From a virus (lineage: Duplodnaviria > Caudoviricetes), in the IMG/VR virus record IMGVR_UViG_3300032265_002598, positions 32,001-96,000 of that record: a DNA stretch of 64,000 nucleotides. One strand, given 5' to 3'. The position numbers and the translations under genes are program-made. This document shows, one piece after another, positions 1 through 6,353 of the stretch. Every line of letters starts with the position of its first letter. Position 1 is the first letter of the stretch. The notes below the pieces were generated by a model. The model searched no databases and had not been told where the DNA came from. It saw nothing but the letters and a program-made list of their open reading frames with translations.

Positions 1-135
1 TGCAATTATCATGCCAAACTTTTTTGGCACAGCATTTGCGTTGCCACTTGACGTAAAGTGTTGGTACATAAGCACTTATGGCAAATTCGGCCCCGAAAAT
101 TCGTCGTAAGTCCTTTGGTGTCAAGGGTTTACGTC
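1..135. repeat. Non-coding regulatory cassette copy 1 (sigma54-like boxes + two TAA-N4-TT-N7-AA-N4-TTA palindromes); may be cut by window edge
   Basis: -24/-12-type boxes: minus 1-16 (TGGCATGATAATTGCA), plus 25-40 (TGGCACAGCATTTGCG), minus 31-46 (TGGCAACGCAAATGCT). Palindromes start at 54 and 107. Blocks shared with 1614-1793 and 2719-2858. Confidence 0.85.
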
Positions 136-157
136 GAATCTTTTGTACACTACTATA

Positions 158-475
158 CTACTGTATAGTCATCCCCTCAATATAGGGGAATACCTTACCA
201 TTTGTGTGTACGTTCCACTCTCCCTTAGTTTGTCGAACATATCCCGGTATATACTTATTCATTCGATCCTTAGTCGTTGGACTATACCATCCCCCATTTC
301 GCAGGGTATAGGTATTATCCTCATGGATTGTCACGACATAGGTACTGTGTAGCATGATCCCTACGCTACCATTCGGCAGAATTTCAGCATAGGTGTTGTT
401 GCCTACCTTGCGGGATTGCCGGCCTGTCTTACCATGTACCATCTTTACTGCTTCGGCGTGTGTCATTTTGTTCAC
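158..475 (-). CDS. Phage hypothetical protein (GGWxxxTTKxRxN type); ATG at 466 is the likely start
   Basis: ORF track 105 aa; overlaps the stop of the upstream minus-strand ORF. Confidence 0.75.
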   Translation of the reverse strand: MNKMTHAEAVKMVHGKTGRQSRKVGNNTYAEILPNGSVGIMLHSTYVVTIHEDNTYTLRNGGWYSPTTKDRMNKYIPGYVRQTKGEWNVHTNGKVFPYIEGMTIQ

Positions 476-579
476 CAGCTTTCGCTGATCATCCCTAGTA
501 ATTGTTGAAGAAACTGTAAAATCTCTTTAATGTTATAAGTAGCATAATCTACATAACCATCGGGCAGATACCTAGACAT
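472..579 (-). CDS. Small hypothetical protein (35 aa, MSRYLPDGY...)
   Basis: ATG at 579 preceded by GAGGGA; 3' part of track ORF 472..657. Confidence 0.55.
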   Translation of the reverse strand: MSRYLPDGYVDYATYNIKEILQFLQQLLGMISESW

Positions 580-586
580 AATTCCC

Positions 587-706
587 TCAGTCGTTGTCGT
601 GAAGAATGGAATGGATAGCGTCGGCAACTTGACCCGCAGTGTAACTAATAAAACCACAGAAGCATAGAAGGCCGGCCAATACGATATAATCTACAAATGT
701 CAACAT
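587..706 (-). CDS. Small membrane protein (39 aa, MLTFVDYIVLAGLLCFCGFISYTAG...)
   Basis: Translated by hand; directly downstream of promoter 732-761 with an A/G-rich leader; one hydrophobic helix. Confidence 0.65.
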   Translation of the reverse strand: MLTFVDYIVLAGLLCFCGFISYTAGQVADAIHSILHDND

Positions 707-731
707 ATTTTTTCTTTTCTATTGTTTTCCT

Positions 732-761
732 ATTATACTCTATCGTTTGCCGGCCTGTCAA
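732..761 (-). promoter_or_regulatory. sigma70-like promoter TTGACA-N18-TATAAT with CGATA in the spacer
   Basis: Minus strand reads TTGACAggccggcaaaCGATAgagTATAAT. Confidence 0.8.
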
Positions 762-931
762 TCCTTACAATATTGCAAGGCATCCTGCATATTAGCTAAT
801 TCGGCTTTGAGTTGTTCTAAGCTATACATTTCACGACCGGGCCAATAATCCCCGATCATGTCTTTCAGATTGAAGATATAGATTTCAACTTCTTTTTTTG
901 TCATATTCTGTATAGCGTAACTTTTTTTCAT
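758..931 (-). CDS. Small hypothetical protein (57 aa, MKKSYAIQNMTKKEVEIYIF...)
   Basis: Hand-translated; purine-rich leader after promoter 955-984; its TGA stop lies inside the next -35 box. Confidence 0.65.
   Translation of the reverse strand: MKKSYAIQNMTKKEVEIYIFNLKDMIGDYWPGREMYSLEQLKAELANMQDALQYCKD
763..780. promoter_or_regulatory. Operator-like palindrome CCTTAC-AATATT-GCAAGG
   Basis: Abuts -35 box; near-identical copies at 1211-1234 and 2369-2392. Confidence 0.65.
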
Positions 932-954
932 TTCTTTTCTCTTTTCTTTTCTCT

Positions 955-984
955 ATTATACTCTATCGGCTATTCTGTTATCAA
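955..984 (-). promoter_or_regulatory. sigma70-like promoter TTGATA-N18-TATAAT
   Basis: Minus strand reads TTGATAacagaatagcCGATAgagTATAAT. Confidence 0.7.
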
Positions 985-987
985 CCC

Positions 988-1146
988 TTAGAGATCCCAA
1001 ATATTTTTTGAAGTATAGGGGAGCAAATCATCAATCGGGAAGCCCGTAGCTTCTGCAACAATCTTTCGGGCTGTAATCCAGTCAGCCGCTTTTGCTTGAC
1101 CGATAAACTTGTGATCGCCATAGCTGAAGAAGTAAAACGTTTTCAT
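988..1146 (-). CDS. Small hypothetical protein (52 aa, MKTFYFFSYGDHKFIG...)
   Basis: Hand-translated; follows promoter 1176-1205 and a purine-rich leader. Confidence 0.65.
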   Translation of the reverse strand: MKTFYFFSYGDHKFIGQAKAADWITARKIVAEATGFPIDDLLPYTSKNIWDL

Positions 1147-1175
1147 TTTCTTTTTTCCTTTTCTCTTGTTTCTCT

Positions 1176-1205
1176 ATTATACAGTATCGGTTATTGTCTT
1201 GTCAA
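1176..1205 (-). promoter_or_regulatory. sigma70-like promoter TTGACA-N18-TATAAT
   Basis: Minus strand reads TTGACAagacaataacCGATActgTATAAT. Confidence 0.8.
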
Positions 1206-1210
1206 CTCTT

Positions 1211-1234
1211 GAACCTTGCAATGTCGTAAGGTTC
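1211..1234. promoter_or_regulatory. Operator-like palindrome GAACCTTGC-AATGTC-GTAAGGTTC
   Basis: 5 nt upstream of the -35 box; repeated three times in the region. Confidence 0.7.
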
Positions 1235-1481
1235 AGGCAAAATCCTCTTCACCAAAGAAATCATCGAGCCATTGATCGTCAGTCTCGATATGATCCTCAG
1301 CATCCCCCATAATGGGGTCCCAACCTTCGCCATCGTCAAGGCCGGGAATGTAGTCGGCTTCCATGCTATCGTCTGCAATGATCGTGCAATGCTCACCACA
1401 CTGCGAGCAAATCTCATGATCCACATTGCTTTCAGCATTGCAGCAATCGGAAACGTATAAGGTATTCTTTTCCATTTTCAT
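1233..1481 (-). CDS. Small acidic protein with CC...CxxC...C putative zinc ribbon
   Basis: 82 aa; SDCCNAES..ICSQCGEHC, then a very Asp/Glu-rich tail. Confidence 0.75.
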   Translation of the reverse strand: MKMEKNTLYVSDCCNAESNVDHEICSQCGEHCTIIADDSMEADYIPGLDDGEGWDPIMGDAEDHIETDDQWLDDFFGEEDFA

Positions 1482-1613
1482 TTTCTCTTTTCTTTCTTGT
1501 TCTCTTTTCTCTTATATCGACATTATACAGTAGATTCTGAAACATTCAAGCAAAATCCAAAAAGATTTATGTCAAGAGATTTTGACAAAACTTTTCATCA
1601 TTTTCTATACGAT

Positions 1614-1793
1614 TGGCATACCATTTGCCCTATGCAATTATCGTGCCAAACTTTTTTGGCATGAAATTTGCTGTGTGTTAAGATAGGTAAGATTGGGCCA
1701 AAAACGTGTCGTAAGTCATTGCAGCATAAGCACTTACGACGAGCCGGCCGCCGCGAATTTGACGTAAGTCCTTTATCCATAAGGGTTTGCGTC
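1614..1793. repeat. Non-coding regulatory cassette copy 2
   Basis: sigma54-like boxes: plus 1614-1629, minus 1633-1648 (TGGCACGATAATTGCA), plus 1657-1672 (TGGCATGAAATTTGCT). Palindromes start at 1712 and 1765. Confidence 0.85.
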
Positions 1794-1820
1794 AAGCCGG
1801 CCAGTATACAAGCGTATACC

Positions 1821-1913
1821 CTACAGGATAGCGTATAGCTCACCTAGTAGAGTACATGCCCTATATGCTAGAACAGTTAGCAGTATACAGGCGATCAGGT
1901 CTACAATTATCAT
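1821..1913 (-). CDS. Tiny membrane peptide (30 aa, MIIVDLIACILLTVLAYRAC...)
   Basis: ATGA overlap with the upstream ORF; hydrophobic. Confidence 0.5.
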   Translation of the reverse strand: MIIVDLIACILLTVLAYRACTLLGELYAIL

Positions 1914-2065
1914 ACACACGCCTCTTCTTTAGCTTGGAGAGATTCAACAAGAGCCCAACATTCATTGAACGTGATATGTCGGGCGATTACCACCCCACCA
2001 TACCACACTTCATATCGATCCCCTGTACGATTGGAAGTATTCCAGTAGATCATTTTCTTTTGCAT
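1910..2065 (-). CDS. Small hypothetical protein (51 aa, MQKKMIYWNTSNRTGDRYEVWYGG...)
   Basis: Hand-translated; downstream of promoter 2087-2115; GAGG in the leader. Confidence 0.65.
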   Translation of the reverse strand: MQKKMIYWNTSNRTGDRYEVWYGGVVIARHITFNECWALVESLQAKEEACV

Positions 2066-2086
2066 GGCTTGTATCCTCTTTTCCGT

Positions 2087-2115
2087 ATTGTATACGTTGT
2101 CCGTTTAGGTGTCAA
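2087..2115 (-). promoter_or_regulatory. sigma70-like promoter TTGACA-N17-TACAAT
   Basis: Direct reading of the minus strand. Confidence 0.75.
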
Positions 2116-2300
2116 GCGGTAGCCAAATAATTGCAAGAAACACACTTGTCGAGATACATTGAACGATATCCAACATTCTCGATTTTCAACGTGAACAACA
2201 GGCGATATCCTTCCATATACTTGACGCTCACGATTTCCCCAACAAACTTTTCACCCGTAGCATATTCGACCGAGACGTTGTATCCGATTTCCATTTTCAT
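2112..2300 (-). CDS. Small beta-rich hypothetical protein (SH3-like pattern)
   Basis: 62 aa ORF; promoter 2335-2362 upstream; stop lies inside the next TTGACA. Confidence 0.7.
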   Translation of the reverse strand: MKMEIGYNVSVEYATGEKFVGEIVSVKYMEGYRLLFTLKIENVGYRSMYLDKCVSCNYLATA

Positions 2301-2334
2301 TTCCTTTTCTTTATCGTTCGTTTCTTGTTTCTGT

Positions 2335-2362
2335 ATTATACATATCGTCTTTTGAGTGTCAA
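2335..2362 (-). promoter_or_regulatory. sigma70-like promoter TTGACA-N16-TATAAT
   Basis: Minus strand reads TTGACActcaaaagaCGATAtgTATAAT. Confidence 0.7.
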
Positions 2363-2368
2363 CAGCTT

Positions 2369-2392
2369 GAACCTTACAATATCGTAAGGTTC
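2369..2392. promoter_or_regulatory. Operator-like palindrome GAACCTTAC-AATATC-GTAAGGTTC
   Basis: Perfect 9-bp arms, 6 nt upstream of the -35 box. Confidence 0.7.
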
Positions 2393-2399
2393 GCCGGCC

Positions 2400-2633
2400 T
2401 TACGGAAGATAGGCTTCATCTACAACATAACCCATTTCGTCAATTTCAATCCATCCACCATCGTCAAGAAATCCGATTTCTCCGTCAATGCAGATTTGGT
2501 TGTATCCACTCTCACGAACCTTTTCTAGCAGATCGCCAGCAAATGCAACCTGATTCACCAGAGTATCCATTGAACCTCTGTTGAGCAGTTCAGTCAGTTC
2601 AGCCACAGTATTCAGTACGATCATGTTTTTCAT
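2400..2633 (-). CDS. Small acidic hypothetical protein (77 aa from ATG 2633)
   Basis: The upstream part of track ORF 2400..2717 is actually promoter/leader (TTGAAA-N16-TATAAT at 2668-2695). Confidence 0.7.
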   Translation of the reverse strand: MKNMIVLNTVAELTELLNRGSMDTLVNQVAFAGDLLEKVRESGYNQICIDGEIGFLDDGGWIEIDEMGYVVDEAYLP

Positions 2634-2718
2634 TTTCTTATCCTTTTCTTTTTTCTCTTGTGCTTTCATTATACAGTATTTATCGACCATTTCAATAGAA
2701 AAAATAAAAAATTCCAAA

Positions 2719-2858
2719 ATATAATTTCATGCCAAATAATTTTTTTCTTTTTGGCATACCACTTGCGTTAAAACTTGACGTAAACCATTGGCACATAAGC
2801 ACTTAGGACGAATTTTCGGGATAGAGATCTTCATAAGTCCTTTGTTTATATACCTTTA
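2719..2858. repeat. Non-coding regulatory cassette copy 3 (more degenerate)
   Basis: Degenerate minus box 2719-2734; plus box 2752-2767 (TGGCATACCACTTGCG). Palindromes start at 2781 and 2834. Confidence 0.75.
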
Positions 2859-2990
2859 CAGAAGAAGGGGGTTTTTTCATTCTCCCCAGATAAGAGCGAA
2901 AACTCTTGAAAAAGGCCGGGTGGTCCAAAAATAGTAGGCACCACCATATATAATTGGCCAGTTTATTAGCCAGTATTCCCCACCTTTAAT

Positions 2991-3436: not shown

Positions 3437-3673
3437 TCAACCAGTGACAGTAGTATCGGACGATTCTGATGTTGTCACCACACGATTTTTACTAGGACGA
3501 CCCCTTGGTTTCTTTAGTGCCAGCTTTCGTCTTTGTCTACGAACCATTGCTGTTGTAATATTTTGACCAGTCATTTGACTCAATTTGACCCCCAAAACTT
3601 CATCACATAACAATGTATGATTATTCTGAATAAACTCTGTTTCACTAGATGACCACTTTTTATATGTTGCCAT
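3437..3673 (-). CDS. Small DNA-binding protein (Myb/HTH-like plus AT-hook-like PRGRP)
   Basis: KKWSSSETEFI...MVRRQRRKLALKKPRGRP. Confidence 0.65.
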   Translation of the reverse strand: MATYKKWSSSETEFIQNNHTLLCDEVLGVKLSQMTGQNITTAMVRRQRRKLALKKPRGRPSKNRVVTTSESSDTTVTG

Positions 3674-3757: not shown

Positions 3758-3922
3758 ATGACTAATCCTGAATTTAATATTGTCGATTCCATATTGACCG
3801 TTAAAGCATCCGGAACAGACCTCAATATCGACCAAGATCTATCACTTCCTCAAGGAAAGAGTATAGCTCAGTTATTATATGACCAAGAAAATTACCCAGT
3901 CAAAGAAGACCCCCAAGAATAA
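3758..3922 (+). CDS. Small hypothetical protein (54 aa)
   Basis: AAGGAGAG RBS before ATG 3758; overlaps the sigma factor gene by 44 nt. Confidence 0.5.
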   Translation: MTNPEFNIVDSILTVKASGTDLNIDQDLSLPQGKSIAQLLYDQENYPVKEDPQE

Positions 3923-4553
3923 AACTCTTCCTGATCAATTGCCCCACGGTGTTACTGAAAAAGAGTTCCTATCAGTATTAGATAATATAAGCAAAAGATT
4001 AGGCCACAAATTTAAATTTGGCTATCATAGTTTCGATGATATGAAGCAACAAGCTGCTATATTTGCTTTGGAAGGTCTACAAAAATATGATAATAAAAGA
4101 CCTCTTGAAAACTTTTTATGGACCCACGTTAGAAATCGCCTCTTCAACTATAAAAGAGATAACTATCAAAGGCCCGATAAACCCTGTTTAACTTGCCCCC
4201 TATATGATGCTCATTGTAAAAAATCCACTAGTGGTTGTTTAGAATATGACAATAAGACCGACTGTGAATTATATCAAACATGGGATGCCAGAAATTCATC
4301 CAAAAAGAACATTATGAAACCCATAGGAATGGATGATGTTCAAGATACTTCCCACAACCACCACAAAACCACCGATGTTCCCAATACTGTTTTTAACAAA
4401 CAAATAATTGACCTATTAGACCAACACATTCCTGCACAATATCGTGAGACCTATCTTAGACTCAAATATGGAGAAAAGATATACAAAAGCGATATGACCA
4501 AATTACTTTCAGTTATCACAGATCTTTTAAGAGAACATGGCTATGAATACTAA
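3879..4553 (+). CDS. Phage sigma70-family (ECF/late-type) sigma factor with a Cys-rich insertion
   Basis: Region-2-like DDMKQQAAIFALEGLQKYDNKRPLENFLWTHVRNRLFNYKRD; CLTCPL..C..C..C insertion. Confidence 0.8.
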   Translation: MTKKITQSKKTPKNKTLPDQLPHGVTEKEFLSVLDNISKRLGHKFKFGYHSFDDMKQQAAIFALEGLQKYDNKRPLENFLWTHVRNRLFNYKRDNYQRPDKPCLTCPLYDAHCKKSTSGCLEYDNKTDCELYQTWDARNSSKKNIMKPIGMDDVQDTSHNHHKTTDVPNTVFNKQIIDLLDQHIPAQYRETYLRLKYGEKIYKSDMTKLLSVITDLLREHGYEY

Positions 4554-5376
4554 AGGCCCCAAGAAGCGTGGACAACTAGGACTTGATGAAGAGAAATATA
4601 TAAGAGACAATATTTTCTCATTATCTATTGAGACTATTGCTGAAAATTTAAATCGGTCAACCGCTCCAGTACAAAGATATATTGATGAGGCCCGACTAAC
4701 TCAAGATCCTGAAGAGGCCACCGATGACCGCGTTCTACGTCAGAAACTTCATGGCAAAAACTTCTGGATAGAAATTAAAAGGCAGTTTGATGAAGACAGC
4801 GGAGAACTAGAATACTTTGAAAGTTTATGGATTAATTTAATTAGACAGTTTAGAGAAGACGTTTTGCCCGCCGAAGAACTTCAAATCAAACAATTCATCA
4901 CTATCGACATTCTTATTAATAGAAGTATGAAAGAACGCAAACGTCACATTAGTGAAACTGAAAAACTCCAAAAGCAAGTTGATAAAGAATATGACAAATC
5001 GGAAACCGAAAGAGATATTCCCAAGCTTGTTAACATGGAAACCCAATTAAGTTTCGCCCGTAATAGCATTGCCAATTACACCAACGAATATACCAAGCTG
5101 CTCAACGAACAACAAAAGATCAGCAAGGATCTTAAAGCGACCAGAGAGCAAAGAATCAAAAGAATCGAAGACGGAAAAAGTTCTTGGGTGGGTTTGATAA
5201 GAATGTTAGAAGATGAAGAAATTAGAGAGCGTGAGGGGCGTGAGATGGAAATTATTAGCATGGCAACTGATAAGGTAATGCTCACACTAGAAGGTTATCA
5301 TCAATATGCCGATGGGGGAATTGACAGTCCATTTTTAACAGCAGAAAGCGTTTTAGAAAAAGAGGATAAAGAATGA
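4537..5376 (+). CDS. HTH + coiled-coil protein; candidate terminase small subunit
   Basis: N-terminal HTH-like SIETIAENLNRS, long coiled coil, position upstream of TerL. Confidence 0.45.
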   Translation: MAMNTKGPKKRGQLGLDEEKYIRDNIFSLSIETIAENLNRSTAPVQRYIDEARLTQDPEEATDDRVLRQKLHGKNFWIEIKRQFDEDSGELEYFESLWINLIRQFREDVLPAEELQIKQFITIDILINRSMKERKRHISETEKLQKQVDKEYDKSETERDIPKLVNMETQLSFARNSIANYTNEYTKLLNEQQKISKDLKATREQRIKRIEDGKSSWVGLIRMLEDEEIREREGREMEIISMATDKVMLTLEGYHQYADGGIDSPFLTAESVLEKEDKE

Positions 5377-6353
5377 AAACAGCATTAGTAACGGGAATTA
5401 CTGGACAAGACGGATCTTATTTAGCAGAACTCTTATTAGAGAAAAACTATAGGGTGGTGGGACTTCATCGAAGATCTAGTACTAATAATTTTGAAAGAAT
5501 ACGTTCCATAGTGGGAAATGTTAATTTTTTACTAGAAGAATTTGATCTAACAGATCCTTCGGGAATTAACAGAATCGTAGATCAATATCAGCCACAAGAG
5601 TTTTATAATCTGGGCGCTCAGAGTCATGTGGGAACTAGCTTTAAACAAGCTACCACAACCTTTGAAATTAATACGGTGGGAGTAGTTAATATATTAGAGA
5701 GTATTCGTAACTTATCTCCTAATACAAAATTTTATCAGGCTAGTACTAGCGAAATGTTTGGGCGAAATTATAGTGAGGGGCCAGATGGTAGCAAATATCA
5801 AAATGAAAATACATTAATGCTTCCTCAAAGTCCTTATGGTGTTGCCAAGCTGGCTAGTTATCACATGGTGGAAATATATCGGTCTTCCTATGGATTATTT
5901 GGCTGTTCTGGCATTTTATTTAATCATGAGAGCCCCAGACGAGGAGAGAATTTTTTAACTCGTAAGGTGACTAAGTATATAGGACAACTAGTAAAAGGAT
6001 TAACTAAGGAAAAATTGAAACTGGGTAATTTAGATGCTCAAAGAGACTGGGGACATGCTAAAGATTATGTAAGAGCAATGTATCTTATGTTGCAGCAAGA
6101 CTCTCCAGAGGATTTTGTAATTGCCACAGGAAGAACTCGATCTGTACATGAATTTGTGGAAACAGCCTTTAAACTAATAAATGCTAATTATCAAGATCAT
6201 GTTGAAATTGATAGCGACTTATTCCGACCAGCCGAAGTAGAATTTCTTAAGGGGGATGCTACTAAAGCAGAAACCAAACTAAATTGGAAGCCAGAGATTT
6301 CCTTTGAAGATTTAATTATGGATATGATTAATAACGATATTATGATGAAATAA
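5373..6353 (+). CDS. gmd: GDP-mannose 4,6-dehydratase
   Basis: ALVTGITGQDGSYLAELLL, YNLGAQSHV, YQASTSEMFG, SPYGVAK, GILFNHESPRRGENF, GNLDAQRDWGHAKDYV. Confidence 0.97.
   Translation: MKTALVTGITGQDGSYLAELLLEKNYRVVGLHRRSSTNNFERIRSIVGNVNFLLEEFDLTDPSGINRIVDQYQPQEFYNLGAQSHVGTSFKQATTTFEINTVGVVNILESIRNLSPNTKFYQASTSEMFGRNYSEGPDGSKYQNENTLMLPQSPYGVAKLASYHMVEIYRSSYGLFGCSGILFNHESPRRGENFLTRKVTKYIGQLVKGLTKEKLKLGNLDAQRDWGHAKDYVRAMYLMLQQDSPEDFVIATGRTRSVHEFVETAFKLINANYQDHVEIDSDLFRPAEVEFLKGDATKAETKLNWKPEISFEDLIMDMINNDIMMK

Follow-up and report, generated by a model that had tools for sequence, protein, structure and literature searches.

The double-palindrome unit and its spread

The window analysed here was a stretch of 64,000 nucleotides (bases 32001-96000) of a 201,067-bp IMG/VR virus record (IMGVR_UViG_3300032265_002598; Duplodnaviria, Caudoviricetes) with 123-bp end repeats and 34% G+C. 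Its first part carried the last three of an array of 15 copies of a real DNA element of about 90 bp, a double palindrome referred to below as the “unit”. According to the codon-usage score, every credible gene between 16.5 and 35.7 kb of the genome was on the minus strand, and the plus-strand structural block began at position 3879 of the window; the three copies therefore lay where a leftward block of small genes, most of them orphans, has its promoter-proximal end, each gene being preceded by a near-consensus TTGACA-16/18-TATAAT promoter. The genome had no DNA-level match in the cultured-phage collection, and its terminase was at best ~25% identical to those of cultured isolates (Bacillus phages).

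Each unit consisted of two 25-bp palindromes, P1 and P2, whose starts were exactly 53 bp apart and which were separated by a GC-rich, roughly dyad-symmetric linker. Both were built on the half-site TAAGTNCTT, and not, as a preliminary description of this DNA had suggested, on a sequence resembling the core of the integration host factor (IHF) site. Fifteen units (14 pairs from pattern scans, plus a 15th unit at genome position 19042) were found between genome positions 17,829 and 34,858, all in one orientation and all with the 53-bp start spacing; a reversed-pattern control gave no pairs, either in this genome or in the four other complete genomes scanned in the same way. The preliminary description had reported a thrice-repeated cassette (1-135, 1614-1793 and 2719-2858). 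The three copies and their palindrome starts (54/107, 1712/1765 and 2781/2834) were correctly placed, two of the six palindromes (1765 and 2834) having one mismatch, but the number three was an effect of the window, which truncated the 15-unit array (copies 1, 2 and 3 being units 13, 14 and 15; Table 1).

The loose pattern TAA-N4-TT-N7-AA-N4-TTA alone was found at chance level in this AT-rich window (18 matches vs. 17.8 expected); unlike the single pattern, the pairing of the palindromes far exceeded chance. In 439 distinct units, conservation was limited to about -6 to +85, with flanks devoid of information. The consensus of the P1 part was TTGnCG-TAAGTCGTT-N7-AAGGACTTA-CGTCAA, followed by a GC-rich centre (GGCCGGCC-like) and by GCCC-TAAGTCCTT-N7-AAGGGTTTA-CGTCAA; three of the four outer arms looked like a -35 hexamer. 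The 7-bp spacers varied among the 15 units (e.g. GGTACAT, GCAGCAT and TGGTGTC) and their columns had near-zero information.

The units were also compared by eye with known operator motifs. The words AGCACT/AGTGCT were shared with the CIRCE/HrcA operator, but the arms were everted and the spacer was different; the boxes of TyrR, NtrC, LexA (Cheo box), Spo0A and CtsR did not match the unit sequences. A separate feature of the early region was the hexamer GCCGGC: its 16 sites were all located there (genome 19078-34398), nine of them being GGCCGGCC, mostly in unit linkers and promoter spacers, and it was absent from the remaining 185 kb, where ~4-5 sites were expected.

A 25-base search pattern (the P1 skeleton, N28 and the P2 core) matched more than 118 contig stretches of IMG/VR. 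In 1.04 Mb of related loci, 505 palindrome pairs were spaced at 53 bp, vs. 8 at 52 bp and 6 at 54 bp, and the five complete genomes, including the one studied here, had 6-16 units each, in one cluster of 15-20 kb per genome. Among 185,579 prokaryote genomes, the paired pattern was present in only 6 contigs, all of them short or phage-like contigs of freshwater metagenome-assembled genomes (MAGs). These contigs were filed under Gammaproteobacteria, Rhodobacteraceae, Burkholderiaceae and Planctomycetota (one of them being RFTN01000003.1, 141 kb, the locus L124 of our collection); since their taxonomy was inconsistent, they are probably phage DNA mis-binned into MAGs. The element is typical of a large, uncultivated group of freshwater phages with genomes of 160-240 kb, and the 78-bp pattern is a specific metagenome marker for this lineage, which also flags phage contigs mis-binned into bacterial MAGs.

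Promoter phasing and cassette junctions

Among 355 confidently oriented units, 236 had a gene-direction promoter of the TTGACA/TATAAT type on their P1 side, vs. 22 hits at the mirror position beyond P2. The gaps between P1 and the -35 hexamer peaked at 20-21, 30-31, 41, 52 and 62-64 bp, that is, with a phasing of ~10.5 bp. When units sharing at least 75% identity (flank and unit together) were collapsed, giving 91 clusters, the maximum of spectral power remained at 10.5-11 bp, a value equalled by none of 5000 jittered nulls. In the genome studied here the gaps were 30, 30, 30, 31, 35, 41, 41, 73, 74, 84, 85, 115, 162 and 222 bp. This periodicity indicates that the helical face on which the unit lies is constant with respect to the polymerase; the 53 bp between the palindromes, previously equated with about five helical turns, likewise behaved as an integral number of turns. 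With the promoter spacer taken as 17 bp and transcription as starting 7 nt downstream of the -10 hexamer, the P1 centre was estimated to be near -69, -79, -90 or -101, with P2 53 bp (five turns) further upstream, an arrangement to be expected of an activator, or of a “holding” repressor, acting from upstream.

The units were also places of recombination. Of the 85 distinct clean-indel junctions counted in all pairs of closely related loci, 31 were located inside units, vs. 4.6 expected from the 5.4% of the DNA that units represent; some of the indel events were orthologous repeats, so that the enrichment is real and its size approximate. Many junctions showed a double alignment of 12-50 bp (overlaps of high-scoring segment pairs), as for exchange between repeats, and 15 inserted segments had units at both borders. 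The alignment block ends of the relatives were only ~1.9-fold enriched at units, a weak result superseded by the clean-indel count. In the collinear relative G004 (84-94% identical), 4 of the 13 early-region indels or replacements touched units: two insertions in the genome studied here began precisely where a unit ended on its P2 side (genome 21329 and 26575), and one insertion in G004 terminated at a unit. The fate of a whole cassette could be followed at genome 28327-29012, where an alignment gap of 686 bp with a 12-bp overlap in G004 corresponded to a 698-bp promoter-plus-gene cassette, flanked here by two units. G004 had a single unit at this place, and this unit was a hybrid: its left flank and the left arm of P1 were those of unit 28301, and its sequence from the linker onward was that of unit 28999. 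Units are junctions where gene cassettes were gained, lost or swapped, and the early proposal that they shuffle early-gene cassettes was borne out by the indel junctions and by the hybrid unit.

The same proposal had taken the palindromes for recombination sites with a 7-bp spacer, i.e. for the core sites (9-7-9) of a site-specific recombinase in an integron-like array moving early-gene cassettes. Each palindrome is indeed an inverted repeat about a 7-bp spacer, and the concentration of junctions in units, the crossover of the hybrid unit (inside or next to P1) and the inserted segments bordered by units on both sides would all be explained. However, tyrosine recombinases need matching spacers and those of the units differ, the overlaps of 12-50 bp fit homology-driven exchange, helical promoter phasing is not expected from recombination sites, and neither tyrosine nor serine recombinase domains (PF00589 and PF00239) were present in the genome, making this explanation very unlikely. 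The absence of a recombinase gene and the variation of the spacers suggest that recombination at units is driven by homology, as proposed for the promoter-early stem-loop (PeSL) cassettes of T4-like phages (PMC4122927).

The sequences of the palindrome arms pointed to recognition as double-stranded DNA. In the 355 oriented units, all of the 30 pairs with the highest mutual information were 1-3 columns apart, reflecting a one-base register variant (TAAGT vs. TAAAGT), and none of them joined two arms. The Watson-Crick fraction at almost every arm pair was equal to or lower than expected from independent columns, with the exception of two P2 flank pairs, which were ~0.11 above this expectation. 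Arms kept as sequence and not as pairs are characteristic of four half-sites read by a protein, so that the unit would be a DNA site for a protein and not a hairpin in RNA, and a single-strand role is disfavoured.

The reading we prefer, to which we give a probability of roughly 0.6, is that the unit is a protein-binding, promoter-phased early control element that doubles as a junction for cassette shuffling. A lineage-specific phage protein would sit on P1 and P2, as two dimers or as one tetramer, with both sites facing the same side of the helix. The unit would be polar, with its P1 side directed toward the next gene-direction sigma70-type promoter; since P1 faces this promoter at whole-turn distances, the bound protein may touch RNA polymerase or wrap DNA around it, and would in this way determine how strongly each early transcription unit is expressed. 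Being similar direct repeats at the borders of cassettes, the units would at the same time provide crossover points for the deletion, insertion or swap of promoter-plus-gene cassettes.

Several observations weigh against this reading. The units of related phages were partly orthologous and the counts are thus non-independent, a dependence which clustering reduces but does not abolish. About one third of the units lacked a promoter recognisable at a distance of up to 150 bp. Which way the regulation goes can only be guessed: because the early promoters already matched the consensus and had A/T-rich upstream tracts, shut-off was favoured over activation, and we lean towards a timed shut-off of these promoters. 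The consensus unit could form hairpins (folding z ~ -2 on both strands), and at two arm positions of P2 49-61% of the pairs were G.T on the plus strand. Finally, no unit-binding protein was found: a Pfam survey of 191 small open reading frames (ORFs) gave no helix-turn-helix (HTH), ribbon-helix-helix or other classical DNA-binding family, and no recombinase, among the families listed (for the second half, the first 25 of 54), no homologue of the phi29 protein p4 was found, and a protein atlas returned nothing for the early protein most often linked to units. A candidate DNA binder, proposed as a lead only, is a conserved 78-aa protein encoded by the first gene of the leftward early block. Its invariant residues included W7, E11, RRQRRKL and R57-G58-R59 (an AT-hook-like RGR tail), and three helices were predicted by AlphaFold2 (pLDDT 78.5). 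Foldseek gave no significant match (best E 0.95), the non-significant ones being mainly Myb repeats, the GcrA DNA-binding domain (TM 0.82-0.86 by target) and small-terminase HTH domains.

The pairable arms and the G.T pairs of P2 would be accounted for if the unit were a structured RNA or single-stranded DNA element, with two hairpins working as a terminator, an RNase III site, a small RNA or a REP-like element; the upstream genes stopped 20-100 bp before P2, and the unit is thus probably transcribed. Against this, arm covariation was lacking, the interior arm positions of P1 were mostly mismatched, and only 9 of 80 minimum-energy folds contained both hairpins in register. Scans of the window gave no Rfam family and no tRNA, and no conserved U-tract (T-run) followed P2 in the unit alignment, which spoke against a rightward intrinsic terminator at this place. 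The exact 53-nt spacing and the phasing to DNA promoters would also be hard to explain, and a folded element is highly improbable.

Sigma54-type boxes

The second feature of this region was a set of boxes resembling the -24/-12 promoters of sigma54 (RpoN). Six exact TGGCA-N6-TTGC boxes were present in the window, vs. 0.41 by chance, and none of 100 shuffles reached this number. Seven good matches had been described initially, one more than the exact boxes of the window; a further box was at genome 31982, 18 bp before the window start. The boxes had been described as back-to-back on both strands, which was true of copies 1 and 2 and not of copy 3, with a plus-strand box only; the distance of 14 bp between the plus-strand box and the first palindrome was confirmed for copies 1 and 3 (40 bp in copy 2). 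The density of boxes in the early region, also pointed out at that stage, extended to the phage group: 194 strict TGGCAY-N5-TTGC boxes were found in 1.06 Mb of loci, vs. ~2 expected from composition (an enrichment of ~100-fold). The GG/GC spacing was conserved, with a 6-nt gap in 70 of 70 GGCA...TTGC pairs situated by units. The boxes had the GG-N10-GC arrangement of sigma54 sites, and their conserved positions (T-TGGCA-Y ... TTTGC-T/G) agreed with the published RpoN motif, TGGCACnnTTnTTGC (PMC8743547). They are probably read by the sigma54 holoenzyme of the host. Their use as sigma70 -35 hexamers (TTGGCA) was discarded, no -10 hexamer being conserved 16-18 bp downstream.

Boxes and palindromes had been regarded as parts of one cassette. 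This did not hold: 10 of the 15 units of this genome had no box, only ~13% of the units of relatives had one (at -30 or -25 from P1), ~87% being boxless, and 48 boxes were more than 200 bp away from any unit. The boxes are a separate, optional module. Near units, 106 boxes were directed into P1, against the genes, and 40 had the direction of the genes. In the window, four of the six boxes were on the plus strand, facing the palindromes, and the genes were all on the minus strand, so that these four had no downstream gene on their own strand. Only three boxes (L099 4270 and 5669, and L010 8318) directly preceded a ribosome-binding site (RBS) and ATG. A recurrent sense layout consisted of a box, a hairpin (AACCTTAC..GTAAGG), a sigma70 promoter and a gene. 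The P1-to-(-35) gaps of box-bearing units were 74-162 bp, only partly on the phased series (62, 72.5, 83...), and the boxes of the window may have been inserted between a unit and its promoter.

The interpretation initially put forward was a sigma54 promoter/enhancer module, in which P1 and P2 would be the sites of an enhancer-binding ATPase opening the holoenzyme at the box. The box shares its sequence, its rigid spacing and its enrichment with what would be expected, and the two minus-strand boxes of the window (2-16 and 1634-1648) had P1 and P2 at typical enhancer distances (~ -76 and -129). Part of the interpretation stood for a few relatives, whose boxes had the classical layout of upstream dyads, box, RBS and ATG (L099:4080-4290 and 5500-5690; L010, L109 and L013). 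There, however, the upstream sites were not P1 and P2 but two or three 15-bp dyads of the sequence GTAGCA-AAA-TGCTAC, 40-220 bp from the boxes (27 upstream and 4 downstream), a dyad absent from the genome studied here. The units themselves were phased to sigma70-type promoters and mostly boxless, and in 106 of the 146 unit-associated boxes the orientation was such that P1 would lie at ~ +1 to +25. Most boxes thus differed from sigma54 promoters in opposing the genes and in abutting a palindrome. The phage-encoded partners whose search had been recommended were not found in the genome, neither RpoN, nor a bacterial enhancer-binding protein (PF00158), nor IHF/HU; PF00158 proteins were not found in five other complete genomes either, and the weak matches to this family were a RuvB-like ATPase. 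A literature search on phage sigma54 promoters returned nothing relevant. Taken as a whole, a sigma54 module is an unlikely explanation of the units.

A broader scheme was considered distinctly unlikely. In it, a phage protein assembled on the 53-bp double palindrome with its GC-rich centre would run the early programme of the group and contact host polymerase carrying either sigma70 or sigma54, and the module would double as a crossover point; these phages would then be the first lineage making routine use of host sigma54 holoenzyme while encoding no canonical AAA+ activator. The orientation of most boxes against gene transcription and the lack of an encoded activator would also suit a decoy or roadblock, with sigma54 holoenzyme parked at the boxes, and/or sigma70 region 4 on the TTGACG arms (three of the four outer arms being -35-like), titrating the host polymerase or insulating neighbouring transcription units. 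Sigma54 holoenzyme forms closed complexes that are inactive without an activator (PMC8743547), as such a role would demand. Five to ten boxes per genome would nevertheless be a small sink, and the boxless majority of the units and their helical phasing would be left unexplained; a decoy is barely credible. The enrichment of sigma54-type boxes remains unusual for the early region of a lytic phage, and the use or abuse of sigma54 holoenzyme could be tested once a host is available.

Relation to known systems and neighbouring features

Protein p4 of phage phi29 binds inverted repeats upstream of the early A2b and A2c promoters and of the late A3 promoter. The control element favoured here would resemble this system in having a phage protein on inverted repeats, on a defined helical face, contacting the polymerase at strong sigma-A promoters and shutting off early transcription. 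The phi29 system is, in contrast, one control region with four sites, whereas the units occur in 14-16 copies per genome, one for every early transcription unit, and have another sequence and spacing.

Cooperative repressors bind at integral numbers of helical turns, as is the case of lambda CI (5-6 turns) and of the GalR and AraC loops. The units had the geometry of such paired-dyad operators: two dyad sites ~5.0 turns apart, in phase with the promoter, suggesting a single protein assembly bound to one side of the double helix. The difference is that CI, GalR and AraC act at single regulatory regions, whereas in hundreds of copies of the unit the spacing was exact to the base pair and the linker was conserved and GC-rich.

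Many copies of an operator dispersed over a region of the phage genome and served by one phage regulator are also known from the stoperators of cluster A mycobacteriophages and from the C1 operators of phage P1. These are single, short, asymmetric sites of temperate phages, often in transcribed regions; the units are bipartite, dyad-symmetric and promoter-phased, and belong to a phage without integrase. The proposed double operator is new as a lineage-wide, promoter-phased core element. As a family of cis-elements with hundreds of copies and a rigid geometry, it could be used as DNA-affinity bait for the early-gene regulator of an uncultured phage group.

In what concerns cassette exchange, the closest likeness was to the PeSL cassettes of T4-like phages (PMC2839356; PMC4122927). 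Like these, the units were short, conserved, intergenic regulatory motifs beside early genes that are small and mostly orphans, in a part of the genome with high plasticity, and the indel or swap junctions between related phages were located within the motif. A PeSL is, however, a terminator stem-loop plus an early promoter, and the unit is neither of them, being a separate double palindrome with a fixed 53-bp spacing situated upstream of the promoter at a variable, phased distance. The phage lineages are also unrelated, the terminase similarity to any isolate not exceeding ~25%. The element joins transcription control with modular gene shuffling, and carries the PeSL concept, with another type of motif, to phages outside the T4-like group. 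The genome also had PeSL-like junctions of hairpin plus promoter without units (Table 1); the arms of these hairpins shared CTTAC/GTAAG words with the outer palindrome arms, but everted.

Table 1. Units, promoters, boxes, hairpins and early genes at the beginning of the window (positions are those of the window).
Feature	Position	Strand	Remarks
Unit 13/15 (copy 1)	48-137	+	P1 54-78, linker 79-106, P2 107-131; outer arms TTGACG/CGTCGA
Unit 14/15 (copy 2)	1706-1795	+	P1 1712-1736; P2 1765-1789, mismatch TTG for TTA
Unit 15/15 (copy 3)	2775-2864	+	Most degenerate; P1 2781-2805, AT-richer linker, P2 2834-2858 with one mismatch
Sigma70-type promoter TTGAAA-16-TATAAT, served by unit 15	2668-2695	-	P1-to-(-35) gap 85 bp
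Sigma70-type promoter TTGAAT-16-TATAAT, downstream of unit 14	1522-1549	-	Gap 162 bp; before gene 1233-1481 (-)
Sigma54-like box TGGCATGATAATTGC	2-16	-	Gene direction; P1/P2 centres at ~ -76 and -129
Sigma54-like box TGGCACAGCATTTGC	25-39	+	Toward P1, antisense to genes; ends 14 bp before P1
Three sigma54-like boxes	1614-1628, 1634-1648, 1657-1671	+, -, +	Include palindrome TGCCAAA-N4-TTTGGCA
Sigma54-like box TGGCATACCACTTGC	2752-2766	+	14 bp before P1
CATGCCAAA, upstream of the copy-3 box	2729-2737		Without TTGC partner
Small early genes between units	158-475, 1233-1481, 2400-2717 and others	-
Consensus promoters of unit-less junctions	2362-2335, 2115-2087, 1205-1176, 984-955, 761-732	-	One set per small gene
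Hairpins GAACCTTAC-N6-GTAAGGTTC	763-780, 1208-1234, 2366-2392		At gene ends, directly before the next consensus promoter; no double palindrome
Gene of the conserved 78-aa three-helix protein	3437-3673	-	First gene of the leftward early block

Other features of the genome were recorded. Eight tRNAs were encoded by the phage, seven of them within the early region between units (genome 19936-23403), together with a tmRNA (genome 195237-195586) with the tag GKTSLALAA. A stretch of ~1.1 kb in the early region (genome 17947-19059; L127:3947-5059) was kept in 19 related loci and had a negative codon score on both strands; possibly this DNA is non-coding or atypical in codon usage. Two early proteins encoded at L127:15464-15739 (-) and L127:15800-16018 (-) were extremely acidic, with runs of D/E, and were among the most widely conserved (40-41 loci); they recall the DNA-mimic anti-restriction proteins, although this is a resemblance only.

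Two ORFs were related to the sigma70 family: the first plus-strand gene past the divergence (window 3879-4553), with a weak match to Sigma70_r2 (E 0.002), which was kept in 37 loci, and a second ORF at genome 167376-167510 (-), matching region 4 (E 9e-14). Further into the plus-strand block, a GDP-mannose 4,6-dehydratase (window 5373-6353, +; E 1e-116) adjoined two ORFs, one HNH-like and the other with an ERCC4 domain, immediately ahead of the terminase.

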